A stretch of DNA of 64,000 nucleotides, taken from the NCBI GenBank assembly GCA_025611195.1, contig GCA_025611195.1_4718.2; one strand, given 5' to 3'. The position numbers and the translations under genes are program-made. The stretch is from a phage. The notes beneath the pieces are model-generated. The model searched no databases. It had not been told where the DNA came from and saw nothing but the letters and a program-made list of their open reading frames with translations. Shown piece after piece: positions 35,823-42,444 of this stretch; position 1 is the first letter of the stretch, and the number at the start of each line of letters is the position of its first letter.

Positions 35823-36022
35823 TTTAATCCTCTAAGTGTTTCAAGTAGTTCCTGAAATTTGTAACGATATTTAGAATCACTTAACGTGTAACAGCAACCA
35901 CGTAACACGTTATGCGCGTAATCAGCTTGTAAACCACGAACCTTCGGATCCAGTGATAGATTCAATGACGCGTCATCAAAAATCCACGCTTCAATGTTCT
36001 TCTTAGATTCCTTCGTTAACAT
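35819..36022 (-). CDS. hypothetical small protein
   Basis: Start moved to ATG 36022 (GAGGTGA upstream); the ORF-track start lies inside the stem-loop. ATGA overlap with thyA. Confidence 0.45.
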
Positions 36023-36146
36023 CGTTTTCACCTCGTAGTAAAAGTAAATAGAGTTTTGTCGAGACGCCCTAATTACATACAACGTAGGTTCTCCTGGCTT
36101 CAGAGAATTCTTAAAATCCGTTAGTTTTGATGGACAGGATAAGACA

Positions 36147-36175
36147 GCATAAAAGCCTCCCATTACGGGAGGCTT
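36147..36175 (-). promoter_or_regulatory. stem-loop AAGCCTCCC-ATTAC-GGGAGGCTT followed on the minus strand by TTTTATGCTG
   Basis: 9-bp stem 36153..36175 after the stop of 36187..36735; TTTTATGC at 36147..36154 (minus). Confidence 0.55.
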
Positions 36176-36186
36176 CATTAATCAGC

Positions 36187-36735
36187 TTATTTCACAAGAA
36201 CAGCGAATTCGAGAACGTAAATAGCTTCATCGTCCATCGGATTTGTTGTGGTATAGCCAACGAAGCAATAACCCATATCCACGATAAACTCGCTAAGTTT
36301 ATCGATGACTGATGCCTCGATGCGATCATCAACAGACAGACGACATTTACGGGTTATGTTTTGCCCGCGAGGAACACCAGCCAACACGGATAGAAAATGT
36401 ACGATCCGATTATTGGTTGTGAACTGCACGTAATCATCGTAGTGCTTAAGGTCTTTCATCGCAGACTCTACCGTCATCCGGCGACCAGGTGATACATACT
36501 CAGAATAAGAATAAGCTGCAATCGTGCGGCGGTCTTCAGTGAGGTAAGTATTCCCTTCGGGATGATAGCTCTCGATTGTTCCGTCTTCATAGGCGACGGT
36601 TACAACAGGTGCGCCGTACTCGTCGCGACCGAAATCAATCTTACATTTATTCGAAAGCGGTAGAACTGTACAAGGCTTTGCATTGTTCTCATCGGGGAGA
36701 TCGTAACCACTCATCATTTTCAAGAACATAGACAT
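36187..36735 (-). CDS. hypothetical protein, tandem paralog A
   Basis: MSMFLKMMSGYDLPDENNAKPCTV... resembles the 36822..37355 product. Confidence 0.55.
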   Translation of the reverse strand: MSMFLKMMSGYDLPDENNAKPCTVLPLSNKCKIDFGRDEYGAPVVTVAYEDGTIESYHPEGNTYLTEDRRTIAAYSYSEYVSPGRRMTVESAMKDLKHYDDYVQFTTNNRIVHFLSVLAGVPRGQNITRKCRLSVDDRIEASVIDKLSEFIVDMGYCFVGYTTTNPMDDEAIYVLEFAVLVK

Positions 36736-36821
36736 AATAGAACCTCATGATAATAGATAATAGAAATGATAGATAGTACAACAAATTGAGGGGGTATTAT
36801 CCCACCCCCTCGCAGGGATTA

Positions 36822-37355
36822 CTACTTAACGATCGCGATGATTTTGCCGCTCGCACCGGCGTAATATGCTGTTAATTCACCAGTAAACAACTCTTGTAAA
36901 AGACGATTTACGTGACTAACAAAGTTAGGATTGTCTGATTTTACAAACTCGATATTGCGCGTTTGTTTTATATCACGATCGATTAAACGGATTTCCAACA
37001 ACGCACAAATAAGGCGATCGTCGAGTTCACCACTCGCATCCAGCACTTCCCCATACTTCGTAGCACGGACGTCCGCATACATACGGTCAACATCATCCTT
37101 CCCAAAACCACAGGAATAGGCATACGTTGCGATGGTGTTACCATTGTCCATCACATAAACGTTACCACCTGGGTAATCGATAAATCGTTGATCCTTATCA
37201 CCATGAGCGACGAACTCCAGTGTCGGTCTACCCATCGAATCACGGTTGAATTCAATTGTGGTCAAGCGATCTGGTACCACATGCAACGTAAATGGTTTCG
37301 CATTGTTACGATCGCTAGTATCGCAGTTGCCCATTACTTTTACAATAACACTCAT
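36822..37355 (-). CDS. hypothetical protein, tandem paralog B
   Basis: MSVIVKVMGNCDTSDRNNAKPFTL... resembles the 36187..36735 product; AAGGA before ATG. Confidence 0.55.
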   Translation of the reverse strand: MSVIVKVMGNCDTSDRNNAKPFTLHVVPDRLTTIEFNRDSMGRPTLEFVAHGDKDQRFIDYPGGNVYVMDNGNTIATYAYSCGFGKDDVDRMYADVRATKYGEVLDASGELDDRLICALLEIRLIDRDIKQTRNIEFVKSDNPNFVSHVNRLLQELFTGELTAYYAGASGKIIAIVK

Positions 37356-37429
37356 GTTTTATTCCTTAGTAGTCCTAGTAGTAGTATTGAGGAATAGCAC
37401 CTCATTAGATAGTCTATTTTGGTAATGAT

Positions 37430-37729
37430 TTACTGAAACAGGACATTAAACTCGACGAGATACCCATCGGATCTATCACCACGATATCTGTTGCAGAAAA
37501 CACCGAATTTCATCAAGAACTCACATAACTCTTCGGCTTTGTATAACGGAATACGATTTTCGTCGAGCAGAGGACACATATGGCTAACCAGCTCCGACGA
37601 ATCAACGCAACACAAATAAAGAAGGAACCGAACAATAGCTCGGTTCTTAGTGAAGCTCTCGAATTCACCTGCGGTTCTGAACTCATCGAGGAGCTTTGTC
37701 GTTTTCTTCAATCGTTCACGATCAAGCAT
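37430..37729 (-). CDS. hypothetical protein
   Basis: 99-aa ORF with GAGGT before ATG. Confidence 0.5.
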   Translation of the reverse strand: MLDRERLKKTTKLLDEFRTAGEFESFTKNRAIVRFLLYLCCVDSSELVSHMCPLLDENRIPLYKAEELCEFLMKFGVFCNRYRGDRSDGYLVEFNVLFQ

Positions 37730-37742
37730 GTTAACCTCAATA

Positions 37743-37783
37743 CGAACATAACCCTCCTCCGACCCATCAGGGAAGGAGGAGGG
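37743..37783 (-). promoter_or_regulatory. stem-loop CCCTCCTCC/GGAGGAGGG (14-nt loop) followed on the minus strand by TTATGTTCG
   Basis: 9-bp stem 37752..37783 after the stop of 37793..38107; the plus strand carries AATATGCTG on the other side. Confidence 0.5.
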
Positions 37784-37792
37784 AATATGCTG

Positions 37793-38107
37793 TTATTTTG
37801 TTTTAGGTGTTGAACCGTTCTTCTTGAAGTCGGATTCGTATTTCACGTTAGAATCGAGAACCTCACGAACGGTTTTATCCGTACAGCCACGAGCGATGTA
37901 TGCATTAAGATCATCACGTAATTTACGCATTGTTGTTTTATCCGCATCAGAAATATCTGACTTGGTAAGACGGAATGCAATTGCGTCACGGATTTTATTC
38001 AGCGTCGCTGGGTTAATACGCTGTTCTGCAAATACCGCTTTGATGAACTTATCGCTATCTTTCGAAGCGACGGCAGCATCAAGAATCTCAATATGCTTTT
38101 CAGACAT
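37793..38107 (-). CDS. hypothetical protein
   Basis: 104-aa ORF. Confidence 0.5.
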   Translation of the reverse strand: MSEKHIEILDAAVASKDSDKFIKAVFAEQRINPATLNKIRDAIAFRLTKSDISDADKTTMRKLRDDLNAYIARGCTDKTVREVLDSNVKYESDFKKNGSTPKTK

Positions 38108-38163
38108 CTTCTTTCCTTTAATAAACGATCATCGTCATATTCATTGCGCAGGGTACTATCACT

Positions 38164-39387
38164 TCAGTAGCTTAGACATCCCGTGCTACGCGCCAACGCA
38201 ACGTCATATGCATCCATGATCGCATCACCGATAGCGGTATGACGAATCAACGGAATACCCATGTCTGGATACTCTTTGGTACCTAAGATGGATACCGGTT
38301 TGTCTTGATACGCGGCAATCATCGAACGGATATCCTGAACCTGGTTATAACGACAAACTGGCTTAAAGCCTGCTTTACGGAACCAATGTTCTAATTGAGG
38401 CCAATCTGTTTCACCGCGAGCAAGATAATAGAAGGTATCCTTACCGTAGTATTCGGTCATCTCATCACGGATATTGTTAACAAATGCATTTACTGTAGCA
38501 ATGGCTTCTTTATAGTCCATCACTCCGACATGCTGAAAACAATAGTCGCGCGCTTCCTTCGGTGCTTTGGTTTGCCACCATTCTACCGTGGACTTACTAA
38601 TATCACCGCCATCAGCGATTTGACCGTAAACGTCAGGGAAGATATCTATACGTGGACCGTTAATAACAGATTCTGGATTAGCTAGATCAAAGAACAAGAT
38701 GCCGATTTCCAGCAGTACCCCGTTCTTTTCCAGACTGAGATTCTCCACATCCAGGCAAAACGCAGGTTTCTCTACCGCTGAAAAATCAAAATATTCTTCG
38801 AGGCGCGGCGTTGGTTCGGCGGCGAAAAACGTCTCATGAATGAACTGGGCGAATGTCTTATTCTCTGCTACTAAGTCAATACCCAATTTACTTAGCAGAG
38901 GTATAATTGCACGGTCGTTGTACTCCATTACCACCAACTCTTGGCTTTTGATAGAACGACCAATTGAGTAAAAAAGATGAACGATATCTAACGGTTTGTA
39001 CGGAGCCTCAAAAGTTGTTCCCTGGAACGACTCAGCCAGCGCCTTATGCGTTTCTTCACGATGATTCATCAGTTGGAAAATAGCACAGCGCAGATAATGC
39101 CGTAATGTTATCTCGTGAAGGTGTGATGTATCTTCCTGAAATAACGTCATGAAACCGTGATATGTATAATACTCGCCTCTTTGAATTTCTTCGAGGAGTT
39201 CTTTGTCCCCATTTATTTCCTCTGGTGTTATCGGTTCGATTTGATCATGGATAATATTGAGCAGGTCACTGCCGTGTACCTTAAACAGTTTTTCAACGCT
39301 AAAATCGGGTAATGTCGCAATTGCTGCGTACATTAATGTTTCTGCGGGATTAAGTTCTTTATTGTCAATTGTGATGGTTAAAGCCAT
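38164..39387 (-). CDS. protein with C-terminal DEDDh (DnaQ-like) 3'-5' exonuclease domain
   Basis: Exo I-like FCLDVENLSL (DxE) and Exo III-like HTAIGDAIMDAYD (H-x4-D). Start moved to ATG 39387 (GAGGT upstream). Confidence 0.55.
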   Translation of the reverse strand: MALTITIDNKELNPAETLMYAAIATLPDFSVEKLFKVHGSDLLNIIHDQIEPITPEEINGDKELLEEIQRGEYYTYHGFMTLFQEDTSHLHEITLRHYLRCAIFQLMNHREETHKALAESFQGTTFEAPYKPLDIVHLFYSIGRSIKSQELVVMEYNDRAIIPLLSKLGIDLVAENKTFAQFIHETFFAAEPTPRLEEYFDFSAVEKPAFCLDVENLSLEKNGVLLEIGILFFDLANPESVINGPRIDIFPDVYGQIADGGDISKSTVEWWQTKAPKEARDYCFQHVGVMDYKEAIATVNAFVNNIRDEMTEYYGKDTFYYLARGETDWPQLEHWFRKAGFKPVCRYNQVQDIRSMIAAYQDKPVSILGTKEYPDMGIPLIRHTAIGDAIMDAYDVALARSTGCLSY

Positions 39388-39412
39388 TTTATTATACCTC
39401 ATCGAAATCAAA

Positions 39413-39754
39413 TTAGTTAAATTCAGGTTTATCAGCAGCCAGACCAAGTCCAGCCAGTATTACGTAATCATACCAAGCTTTTACTTTTGCTTTCGCTTCA
39501 TCTAAACTATCTGCGTTGATGTGCGGAAACTCATCGTTGACTGGGAAAGGTAAATCGCAGTCGTAGCTTGTATAGTCTTTCCAACCTTTCCATTCGATAG
39601 TTAGAGAACCAAAAACGGTCTCAGCAACAACGTGGTTATAGCGACATTCTTCACATGGCGTACGCTCTTCCGACCAAACAAGCTCGTGCTGTGCTAAAAG
39701 TTGTTGTACGACCGATAATGGTTGCTCTTCATTAAGTTCGATACTGTCTATCAC
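39413..39754 (-). CDS. hypothetical protein
   Basis: 113-aa ORF; ATGA overlap. Confidence 0.5.
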   Translation of the reverse strand: MIDSIELNEEQPLSVVQQLLAQHELVWSEERTPCEECRYNHVVAETVFGSLTIEWKGWKDYTSYDCDLPFPVNDEFPHINADSLDEAKAKVKAWYDYVILAGLGLAADKPEFN

Positions 39755-40347
39755 TGTATACCCTCCTTTTCCTTATCGTAATTACTACACATATTGACAA
39801 ACGCAGTATTATCAGACAGCATGCTAACCATCTGACGGATTGCGTCCAACGGTTCAAGTTTAGGATTGATTGATTCACCGGTCAACGCGCTTATTGCTCG
39901 TGTGATCTCAGCCAAATCAACGTTCGGGTCTTTATCATCAATGATGAGCAGACTCTTCGCCGGTTTCTGACGACGTTTGATGATTAACAAATACGTGACA
40001 AGGTTCTCACGCCAAGCGTCAGAATCCAGATTGCGTATCAGGGTTAACGCACGACGTTCTTCCGCCCATGATGGTTTCTCACGGATAACGGGCATGTAAG
40101 ATAATTGCTCAGCAAGCCCTTTCAAACTGACACGGTTGGTGCCACCAGGATGCTCACTAATCCGCAACATCTCGGTTAACAGACGGACATATGCGGTTGT
40201 TGTAGAAACACCCCGCAGCGGCAGGAACAAATTATGTCCCGGAACCCCATCATGACTCAGCGGTGCGATATACGCCATGAATTGACGGATATCGTCATCG
40301 GTCTGTTCTCCAGCAACGAACTTAAACGCTTCACGTAGAACGCTCAC
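39751..40347 (-). CDS. hypothetical protein
   Basis: 198-aa ORF. Confidence 0.5.
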   Translation of the reverse strand: MSVLREAFKFVAGEQTDDDIRQFMAYIAPLSHDGVPGHNLFLPLRGVSTTTAYVRLLTEMLRISEHPGGTNRVSLKGLAEQLSYMPVIREKPSWAEERRALTLIRNLDSDAWRENLVTYLLIIKRRQKPAKSLLIIDDKDPNVDLAEITRAISALTGESINPKLEPLDAIRQMVSMLSDNTAFVNMCSNYDKEKEGIQ

Positions 40348-40633
40348 TACGAAGTCTCCTTAATGTTTCTTTTATATGCAATCTCTTCGGCAAGTACAGA
40401 CGTTTGTACAGATCAACTAACAGATAACGCATAACGGAAGCAACCACCAGGTATTCGCCTTCAGCTTCCGAATAGCGTATCATGTTAATCGGGTAATTCA
40501 AATAAGAATAAGAAAAGAGATCATCATTGGTGAGGCGATGATCTTCAAGATACTGACGAAACAATTCTGCTAAGGCATCGTACTCCATTCCGTAGTAACA
40601 CAACGATACCTGTCTTACCGACAGTCGTTTCAT
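40331..40633 (-). CDS. hypothetical protein
   Basis: 100-aa ORF. Confidence 0.45.
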   Translation of the reverse strand: MKRLSVRQVSLCYYGMEYDALAELFRQYLEDHRLTNDDLFSYSYLNYPINMIRYSEAEGEYLVVASVMRYLLVDLYKRLYLPKRLHIKETLRRLRSERST

Positions 40634-41472
40634 GCTGAGTTACCTTTTAGTTTTCCGCGTATCATGTCAACAACGCGTGAGGGATCAGAAATAACATTAG
40701 CGATAAGATGATCGATAGGTAGGTCGAGAACGATTTTCTTCAGCTGGAAAGTCGTATCTTTACGACGCACGCCGTAGAACACACCATCTTTAAACACAAC
40801 CTCGTACGAAATTGGTAGCTGACTGATAATCGTGTTAGCGTAATCACCCAACCACATCGACCCCGCCATCAAATGCGCACAAACCGCATGACTAATACGC
40901 ACATCTTTGTTCTTCTGGCTAACGTCTTTGATTTTCGACATGGTGACCAGAAGTTCACCGATCTTACTGAGCATATCGTCGTATACCCCAAAGAACTTAA
41001 TCAGTTGTCGGGCACCTAACGATATATATGTTTCTCGCGGTAAGACACAACACACCTGCGGTAACGTCCCAACCCCATAGACACAACTGTGGGGTGACAA
41101 TGGGAGCAAATCAGCAACCGCGTTCTTGATGTTGTTATACTCAACGATATCGTTGAACGGCGAAAGCCCTTTCGTAATCGGTTTATCAATCGCCACATCA
41201 AACTCCGCGAACGTCCATGCTGCTTTACGGGGTTCCCCTTTCTTGTACGGTGGGGCCAGTATCGCAACAACACGAAGTCGATACTCATGTGTATCGCGTA
41301 GCTTAAGTTGGATACCATCATCATCGCCTTCACGCACAAGTGAGTAGCGGCTCGCGCAACCATCACAGACCACCGTTGGTTCGTGTTGACCGTATGCTGC
41401 AAGCATCGGTTTACTAAGATCTTTATCACAGTGTTTACAATGATGATCCTGTTCCTGATAACTGATTTTCAC
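40630..41472 (-). CDS. hypothetical protein with N-terminal zinc ribbon
   Basis: HHCKHCDK...VVCDGCASRY (CxxC...CxxC). Confidence 0.5.
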   Translation of the reverse strand: MKISYQEQDHHCKHCDKDLSKPMLAAYGQHEPTVVCDGCASRYSLVREGDDDGIQLKLRDTHEYRLRVVAILAPPYKKGEPRKAAWTFAEFDVAIDKPITKGLSPFNDIVEYNNIKNAVADLLPLSPHSCVYGVGTLPQVCCVLPRETYISLGARQLIKFFGVYDDMLSKIGELLVTMSKIKDVSQKNKDVRISHAVCAHLMAGSMWLGDYANTIISQLPISYEVVFKDGVFYGVRRKDTTFQLKKIVLDLPIDHLIANVISDPSRVVDMIRGKLKGNSA

Positions 41473-41487
41473 ATCAGGGCTCCTTTG

Positions 41488-42444
41488 TTAATGTAATACG
41501 CGATCTACTGGAATTGTCGACGCGTTGCTGGCGGACAGATTCGTTGCTTTACGATCAGGACTGAATCGACGAGCGTTCTCTTCATGGTAGTTAACCGGGT
41601 TATCCTGTTTCAGCAATTCTATTGCTTCATCAAACGCTAATTCCCTATAACCCTTTGGATATAGGAACAGGGGTTCGTCAATATCCAACCCTTTAACAAA
41701 CTCATGCGACAACCAAACGCTACCATCAGCACTGTAAAGAACAGGCTCAACATCATAATCCAAAACGTATTGATACCAGTAATTAAACAGTTGGGCGATC
41801 CATCGATTACGTAATAAATAATCGATTACAACCGCACTACGCACGCTATGGCACCAGCCGATCTTACCGTCAACTCTCTGCAACAACGTACCGTCATTTG
41901 CTTGGTGGATGACAGCATTAAATAACCAGGCAAGATCGGTTGCGAAAAGTGCCGCTTCTTGAATATCGCTAATGTAGCGCACAGGTATCGTCAGATGAGT
42001 GCGGTAATGCGCCATCGCTTCTTCGTAGTTGTCTCCTTCGATACAGAGAATACCATTTGACGACAGATGCCCCTGATTCAATGACTGACTGATATAAAGA
42101 TCAGCGATCGCGTTAATATGTTCGACGGTACCCAAGGTTAATTCAGACATAAAACGATCAACGTCAACGGACATCGATGTACCGGAAATGAACGGATTGG
42201 CTGGGCGAGCCGTATTAGAGAAAATAATCGACCAGATCGCTTCGTGTTTTTCATCCGATGGGACAAACGAAATATGGCGTTCTGCACTATTAGCATCAAC
42301 AGATACTTCTACTGTTTTCAAGCAGCTAGTACAAACATAACACGTGTTCGGCAACGGCATATCCGAAAACATATCGTAACGAATTGTCGCAATTGAAATA
42401 TCATGTCCGCAGTGAGGGCATGTGGTATCAATAAGTGTTCTCAT
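41488..42444 (-). CDS. hypothetical protein with N-terminal zinc ribbon
   Basis: TTCPHCGHD...CYVCTSCLK. Confidence 0.5.
   Translation of the reverse strand: MRTLIDTTCPHCGHDISIATIRYDMFSDMPLPNTCYVCTSCLKTVEVSVDANSAERHISFVPSDEKHEAIWSIIFSNTARPANPFISGTSMSVDVDRFMSELTLGTVEHINAIADLYISQSLNQGHLSSNGILCIEGDNYEEAMAHYRTHLTIPVRYISDIQEAALFATDLAWLFNAVIHQANDGTLLQRVDGKIGWCHSVRSAVVIDYLLRNRWIAQLFNYWYQYVLDYDVEPVLYSADGSVWLSHEFVKGLDIDEPLFLYPKGYRELAFDEAIELLKQDNPVNYHEENARRFSPDRKATNLSASNASTIPVDRVLH

Follow-up and report, generated by a model that had tools for sequence, protein, structure and literature searches.

The stretch analysed here, referred to as the window, is a 64,000-nucleotide (nt) piece of phage DNA (contig GCA_025611195.1_4718.2 of assembly GCA_025611195.1), whose minus strand carries at positions 38164..39387 a complete coding sequence of 407 amino acids (aa). 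Its product combines a C-terminal domain of the DEDDh 3'-5' exonuclease type with an N-terminal domain for which no homologue was found beyond Goslar-like phages, and this N-terminal domain occurs among close relatives as two highly diverged alleles. The gene is read from an ATG at 39387..39385 to a TGA at 38166..38164, with a Shine-Dalgarno sequence GAGG at 39397..39400 on the minus strand, 9 nt before the ATG. The upstream gene ends with a stop codon at 39415..39413, leaving 25 nt ahead of the exonuclease ATG. The mechanically called open reading frame (ORF) extends further, up to a TTG at 39447, and because this longer version overlaps the upstream gene, the ATG at 39387 is the sensible start, which also agrees with the Goslar annotation. 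The gene named in the original prediction is thus real, as the 407-aa ORF, its ribosome-binding site (RBS) and the orthologue in Goslar confirm.

Positions 36000-42000 of the window share 91.9% nt identity over 6 kb with Escherichia phage vB_EcoM_Goslar, the sole isolate phage matched by this interval, and the gene order is the same in both; the window therefore belongs to a Goslar-like phage genome. Goslar, a nucleus-forming jumbo phage, belongs to the Chimalliviridae and has a genome of 237 kb; genomes of this kind are frequent, as contigs of ~235-250 kb, among assemblies that bear the label E. coli, Salmonella or Shigella. The orthologous Goslar protein, gp147 (YP_009820832; UniProt A0A482GDY9), is 85% identical in aa over the full length and shares the two-domain architecture, the N-terminal domain of type A (see below) and the genomic position. 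It is known as an annotation alone: RefSeq names it "3'-5' exoribonuclease" because of its Pfam domain, and no mention of gp147 was found in the literature. The exonuclease itself is ordinary and annotated already in the reference phage.

The C-terminal nuclease domain

The nuclease domain spans ~aa 206-400, about 200 aa, and the segment encoding it together with the remaining residues and the stop codon (aa 206-407) lies at 38164..38772 on the minus strand. It matches the Pfam family PF16473 (Rv2179c-like) with 52.8 bits against a gathering cut-off of 27 (E 5.1e-14), the match running over aa 211-393 of the protein and over positions 4-170 of a profile with 177. The best PHROG match is PHROG 255, 'exonuclease' (E 1.4e-26), and T4 dexA itself is tagged phrog 255. 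When the single sequence was searched against PDB, only a weak match to 8kel, the T4 DexA 'exodeoxyribonuclease' of 227 aa, was obtained (E 0.35). A profile built from the exonuclease domains of five chimallivirus proteins, namely those of the window, a type-B relative, the protein P0024, Salmonella phage SA002 and Erwinia phage RAY, with DexA left out, reached 8kel over the whole domain with E 2e-9. A narrower profile of four nuclease-domain sequences gave no PDB match, and the PDB entries of Rv2179c had no direct sequence match in the single-sequence or the profile searches.

The catalytic motifs were aligned with those of homologues including DexA, RAY gp064, SA002 and P0024, and all five DEDDh residues have their counterparts in DexA. 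The Exo I motif D213-V-E215 (38743..38751, minus strand) aligns with DexA D7/E9 and is invariant in all six aligned homologues, the Exo II aspartate D328 (38404..38406, minus strand) aligns with DexA D119, and the Exo III motif H383-x4-D388, which reads H-TAIG-D (38224..38241, minus strand), aligns with DexA H186/D191, the last two being invariant as well. The DexA catalytic residues have been equated with D12/E14/D103/H162/D167 of DNA polymerase III epsilon (PMC12153337). The same catalytic set of D-x-E, D and H-x4-D is shared with E. coli DNA polymerase III epsilon (DnaQ) and RNase T, although these enzymes have no detectable direct sequence similarity to the protein described here, which also lacks a polymerase-binding tail. 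The DxE and H-x4-D motifs of DnaQ/RNase T type seen by the original prediction are therefore borne out by the alignment with DexA and by the matches to PF16473, PHROG 255 and 8kel, while their placement in the C-terminal third gives way to a nuclease module that takes up the C-terminal half of the protein.

T4 DexA (exonuclease A; PDB 8kel/8ken) resembles the window protein in family, in the five catalytic residues and in being a phage accessory enzyme tied to nucleotide supply, with about 25% identity. It differs in being a stand-alone protein of 227 aa, whereas the window protein bears an extra domain of 205 aa. Among the residues of DexA involved in the recognition of DNA with 5-hydroxymethylcytosine (5hmC), W152 and D169, the former is needed for activity on 5hmC DNA (PMC12153337). 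D169 is conserved as D362 in the window protein, whereas W152 corresponds to N348 and is replaced in all chimallivirus homologues; Goslar-like phages give no indication of hydroxymethylcytosine in their DNA. Rv2179c of Mycobacterium tuberculosis, the founder of PF16473, shares the Pfam family and the DEDDh 3'-5' exonuclease character, but is bacterial and single-domain.

An AlphaFold2 (AF2) model of the full protein had a mean predicted local distance difference test score (pLDDT) of 47.9, with values <50 over aa 189-407. Since the underlying alignment was shallow, with 22 close homologues, this outcome is taken as a failure of the method and not as evidence against the fold. An RNase H-like alpha/beta fold is predicted instead from the whole-domain profile match to the sequence of the T4 DexA crystal structure, which supports it indirectly. 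Its sequence places the C-terminal module among the two-metal-ion DEDDh 3'-5' exonucleases of the T4 DexA/Rv2179c family, with the motif set intact.

The N-terminal domain and its two alleles

The N-terminal part, aa 1-205, is encoded at 38773..39387 on the minus strand and consists of a module of aa 1-~188, followed by ~17 aa that form a flexible acidic linker to the nuclease. The original prediction had assigned about 250 aa without a recognisable motif to this part; its length is reduced to ~205 aa, whereas the lack of a motif stands firmly after searches of Pfam, PHROG, PDB and protein collections. When aa 1-205 were compared by phmmer with 1.84 billion representative proteins, only the cluster of the protein itself was retrieved, and a profile combining both allele types, searched against 5.8 billion proteins, retrieved Goslar-like proteins only. 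There was no match below E 0.3 among PDB sequences, nothing credible in Pfam or the PHROGs, and no paralogue of the domain among all six-frame ORFs of the 64-kb window. NCBIfam and PADLOC gave no match, and no relative turned up when bacterial species were scanned with one genome each. An AF2 model of the domain alone, made with types A and B, was of low confidence (pLDDT 55.6, predicted template modelling score 0.53) and shows a short N-terminal beta-hairpin followed by an all-alpha structure; with this model, the best Foldseek match in PDB had an E of 1.7 and BFVD returned Goslar gp147 only.

The domain is acidic, with an isoelectric point of 4.9 and a net charge of -17, the same charge being found in type B, which argues against a classical nucleic-acid-binding domain. 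The ratio of non-synonymous to synonymous substitution rates (dN/dS) is 0.31-0.36 in the N-terminal domain versus 0.06-0.20 in the nuclease domain. The nuclease is under strong constraint, and from its own dN/dS the N-terminal domain is translated and constrained too, albeit less strongly. Its substitutions have a hot spot at aa ~121-165, the region in which the window protein differs most from Goslar gp147, and this hot spot overlaps the stretch that AF2 predicted worst (aa 121-160).

Homologues with both domains fall into two classes, type A of 407-409 aa, to which the window protein and Goslar gp147 belong, and type B of 437-442 aa. Between the classes the nuclease domains are ~90% identical and the N-terminal domains only ~18%. 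The two kinds of N-terminal domain are collinear and detectably homologous (hhalign E 3.8e-5 over 181 columns), positions conserved between them are mostly hydrophobic, and the linker of type B is longer and acidic. At the DNA level the difference is confined to an allelic cassette at 38780..39420 (minus strand), made up of the intergenic region with its own RBS and the coding sequence of the N-terminal domain, which is of type A in the window; in close relatives, a type B segment that cannot be aligned with it takes its place. The locus L012 matches the window at 96.8% in the upstream flank and at 92.2% in the downstream flank, and the more distant L002 at about 82% in its flanks, yet in both loci no nt similarity is left in exactly the interval from 39421 to 38779. 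One junction lies where the upstream gene has its final codons, the other at the codons for A-V|E-K-P-A-F. Each allele carries its own intergenic region and RBS, the type B sequence being different from that of type A, and the GAGG ahead of the ATG is specific to the type A cassette.

All of the loci for which DNA was available (11/11) are of type A or type B, with no third type, and both types are common, with roughly 380 versus 200 member sequences in the clusters examined. The upstream flank of the window is nearest to two type-B loci (95.8% and 95.4%), versus 92.8% for the type-A Goslar. This incongruence between the allele type and the flanks implies that the cassette is exchanged by recombination. 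An association of the allele type with the host genus was considered and rejected, as both alleles are found under E. coli, Salmonella and Shigella assembly labels. The pattern would fit two old alleles with a shared hydrophobic core pattern and divergent surfaces, which recombination may swap at fixed junctions.

Two further observations concern variation at this locus. Among the six type-B loci, four (L015-L018) share only 57-70% identity with the window in the 1.5 kb that follow the exonuclease gene downstream, and L012 shares 95%, so that this region is itself mosaic among Goslar-like phages. The other concerns P0010 (three member sequences, on contigs of up to 247 kb), a type-A allele with an N-terminal domain that diverges further over aa ~117-195 and with a frameshift after ~aa 312, through which Exo II and Exo III are lost. 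The presence of such frameshifted alleles on full-length phage contigs suggests that the exonuclease gene is dispensable; either this holds in some phages, or the frameshift is an assembly error.

Gene order in relatives and neighbouring DNA

In five lineages, represented by Goslar, L002, L004, SA002 and RAY, the exonuclease gene is followed by 2-4 small genes and then by the gene of thymidylate synthase. In the more distant of these relatives the exonuclease stands alone. The protein P0024 of locus L004 has 244 aa and is 48% identical, and P0029 of locus L006 is likewise an exonuclease alone at the same position. In Salmonella phage SA002 (ACSA002_0540, 220 aa) and Erwinia phage RAY (gp064, 250 aa), both nucleus-forming jumbo phages, the exonuclease domain is 22-30% identical and lies upstream of thymidylate synthase, the difference from the window protein being a length of 220-250 aa without the N-terminal domain. 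Since it is the exonuclease alone that distant relatives encode at this position, the ancestor was a single-domain DexA-like protein, to which the N-terminal domain was added in Goslar-like phages. The idea of a split gene, in which the ORF upstream of the stand-alone exonuclease in L004 and L006 would be the detached N-terminal domain, was rejected, because that ORF is unrelated in sequence and gave no hidden Markov model match.

Thymidylate synthase, an HD phosphohydrolase and a metallophosphoesterase are encoded nearby. In L004 (3438..6171), a gene for a homing endonuclease of the GIY-YIG/NUMOD3 (I-TevI-like) kind splits the thymidylate synthase gene in two ORFs, which suggests that this thyA carries a mobile intron, as does T4 td. 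A gene of ~295 aa with the Pfam match AcrVA2-like (PF26125) is found one or two genes downstream of the stand-alone exonuclease, at 1566..2453 in L004 and 7350..8234 in L006; the window genes at the matching position have no Pfam match.

Directly ahead of the exonuclease ATG, within the intergenic sequence specific to the type A cassette, lies a sigma-70-like site at 39391..39420 on the minus strand (TTAACT, 18 nt, TATAAT; 10 of 12 positions), which is the best match in an 11-kb region. It is not accepted as a promoter and is probably fortuitous, since its -10 element falls partly within the stretch that separates RBS and ATG, sites of this kind are scarcer in the region than chance would give (10 found versus 22.8 expected from shuffled sequence), and Goslar-like phages transcribe with their own RNA polymerases.

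Further along the window, a 99-aa ORF at 37430..37729 on the minus strand overlaps an ORF at 37580..37813 on the plus strand, which is annotated in Goslar as gp145 and is the only gene there against the direction of the block. The minus-strand ORF is intact in nine of the ten relatives searched (no match in L018), with protein identity of up to 97-98%, and the plus-strand ORF has stop codons in four of the ten; the former is probably the real gene and gp145 of Goslar misannotated. The adjacent hypothetical genes at 36187..36735 and 36822..37355 (both on the minus strand) are homologues of Goslar gp143 and gp144 and are paralogous to each other over the first ~80 aa (35% identity, E 7.5e-13), with no Pfam match. 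The Goslar annotation places a terminator after each of gp143 and gp144, and the window has a strong terminator-like hairpin at 36811..36788. No tRNA or tmRNA gene is present within the 64,000 nt, and GC skew is negative almost throughout the window, in line with the predominance of minus-strand genes.

Proposed function and rival explanations

On balance, and with modest confidence, we regard the protein as a two-module enzyme, in which a DexA-type exonuclease that scavenges host nucleic acid in the cytoplasm is tethered to a fast-evolving adaptor, the N-terminal domain. The nuclease would remove nucleotides singly from free 3' ends, and by analogy with its syntenic homologue in RAY it would work in the host cytoplasm, outside the phage nucleus. 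A green fluorescent protein fusion of RAY gp064 is diffuse in the cytoplasm and stays outside the phage nucleus, and gp064 belongs to the accessory, not the core, genome (PMC10299810). Fragments of host nucleic acid may be trimmed to mononucleotides, with the host chromosome as the likeliest substrate and RNA as a possible one, and these mononucleotides could feed the thymidylate synthase, HD phosphohydrolase and metallophosphoesterase encoded nearby. Such a role in the breakdown of host nucleic acid is suggested by the company of these three genes, by the function of T4 DexA, which yields mononucleotides from host DNA (PMC12153337), and by the course of Goslar infection, in which most of the host chromosome has been broken down by 60 min (bioRxiv 10.1101/2021.10.25.465362). 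Rather than bind nucleic acid, the N-terminal domain may serve as an adaptor or a regulator, through contact with a partner protein or control over oligomerisation. Among the roles offered by the original prediction, which were proofreading, degradation of host DNA and RNA processing, the degradation of host nucleic acid is hence favoured by thymidylate synthase synteny, kinship with DexA and the cytoplasmic RAY gp064, and proofreading is disfavoured by the last of these.

Several points weigh against this assignment. The PF16473/DexA family includes an exonuclease for DNA, DexA, as well as one for RNA, Rv2179c. Goslar degrades host DNA and RAY does not (PMC10299810; bioRxiv 10.1101/2021.10.25.465362); since RAY encodes a homologue and yet leaves host DNA undegraded (PMC10299810), the enzyme is not sufficient for the breakdown of the chromosome and is perhaps not reserved for that task. 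In RAY gp064 the N-terminal domain is missing, so the cytoplasmic location of gp064 may not transfer to the window protein. The neighbours of the exonuclease gene are almost all uncharacterised, with genes of nucleotide metabolism few and several kb apart. The structure models of the full protein and of the N-terminal domain are both of low confidence, and the adaptor role is weakly inferred, from charge, modularity and evolutionary pattern only.

The same family membership opens the way to an enzyme directed at RNA, which is plausible but which we consider unlikely, although it deserves more weight than the other alternatives. Such a 3'-5' exoribonuclease, similar to M. tuberculosis Rv2179c, would act in the cytoplasm in the decay of host mRNA, tRNA or rRNA, leading to shut-off and ribonucleotide salvage, or would trim phage transcripts. 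PF16473 is named after an exoribonuclease, Rv2179c being so described in the title of Abendroth et al. 2014 (J Biol Chem 289:2139), as cited in PMC10534295, and the RefSeq name of gp147 follows suit. The RAY homologue is located where mRNA and ribosomes are, and its gene is retained in a phage that does not degrade host DNA (PMC10299810). However, the sole solved structure reached by the sequence profile is that of a DNA exonuclease, T4 DexA, the best PHROG match is likewise the DexA family, and the syntenic thymidylate synthase is an enzyme of deoxynucleotides. To our knowledge, no sequence feature tells RNA-specific from DNA-specific members of the family.

The dimorphism of the N-terminal domain would be explained best by counter-defence with a polymorphic targeting head, which as an account of the whole protein is nevertheless improbable. 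The N-terminal domain would then be a balanced, recombining specificity module, whose two ancient alleles each recognise a different variant of a variable factor of the host or of a rival phage, retargeting the housekeeping DexA-type exonuclease to a nucleic-acid-protein complex such as an immune effector, or to a nucleic-acid effector or signal. Retron multicopy single-stranded DNA (msDNA), guide RNAs and oligonucleotide messengers would be candidate targets, or else the domain could itself be an inhibitor or decoy. In keeping with this are the deep divergence of the alleles, their high frequency and their shuffling by recombination between near-identical phages, the faster evolution of the domain with its hot spot, the acidity of both alleles, and the AcrVA2-like gene close to the stand-alone exonuclease of distant relatives. 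The dN/dS of the N-terminal domain, however, indicates relaxed or purifying selection and not overall positive selection, the allele type is uncorrelated with the host genus label, and no similarity to anti-defence or defence proteins emerged from PADLOC or from the comparison of the domain with Pfam and PHROG. Mosaic exchange is moreover general in Goslar-like genomes, and cassette exchange alone is therefore not specific evidence for counter-defence. Ranked lowest, and improbable to a still greater degree, is a function in replication or recombination inside the phage nucleus, such as proofreading or 3'-end resection, with the N-terminal domain docking to polymerase, clamp or recombinase or serving import. 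DEDDh enzymes do include the proofreading epsilon subunit, whose active site DexA matches, and in intron homing T4 DexA has phage DNA, too, as a substrate (PMC12153337); the thymidylate synthase of the related locus L004 is interrupted by a homing endonuclease, and the added domain could alter localisation. Against this, the homologue in RAY is kept out of the nucleus and belongs to the accessory genome (PMC10299810), the P0010 alleles without motifs II and III argue against an essential replication role, and two alleles of 18% identity fit poorly with docking on conserved core replication proteins.

With the scavenging two-module enzyme as the preferred reading, what is new is that a normally stand-alone scavenging exonuclease has gained an orphan domain in Goslar-like nucleus-forming phages. 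The orphan domain, its recent acquisition and its behaviour as a two-allele cassette appear to be undescribed in the literature. With ~18% identity inside genomes that are 92-97% identical around it, the N-terminal domain is among the sharpest allelic dimorphisms at the locus, which makes it a candidate surface for contacts with the host cell. As the DNA of chimalliviruses is enclosed by a protein shell, it is the phage enzymes in the cytoplasm that meet host nucleic acids and host defences directly. Should the domain merely serve oligomerisation or stability, the finding would amount to a routine refinement of annotation. If it is a specificity module, the protein would combine a nuclease with a targeting head that can be exchanged, an arrangement undescribed for DexA/Rv2179c enzymes. 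The partners of the two alleles could reveal either how the breakdown of host DNA or RNA is organised in these phages, or a new interface of conflict between host and phage.

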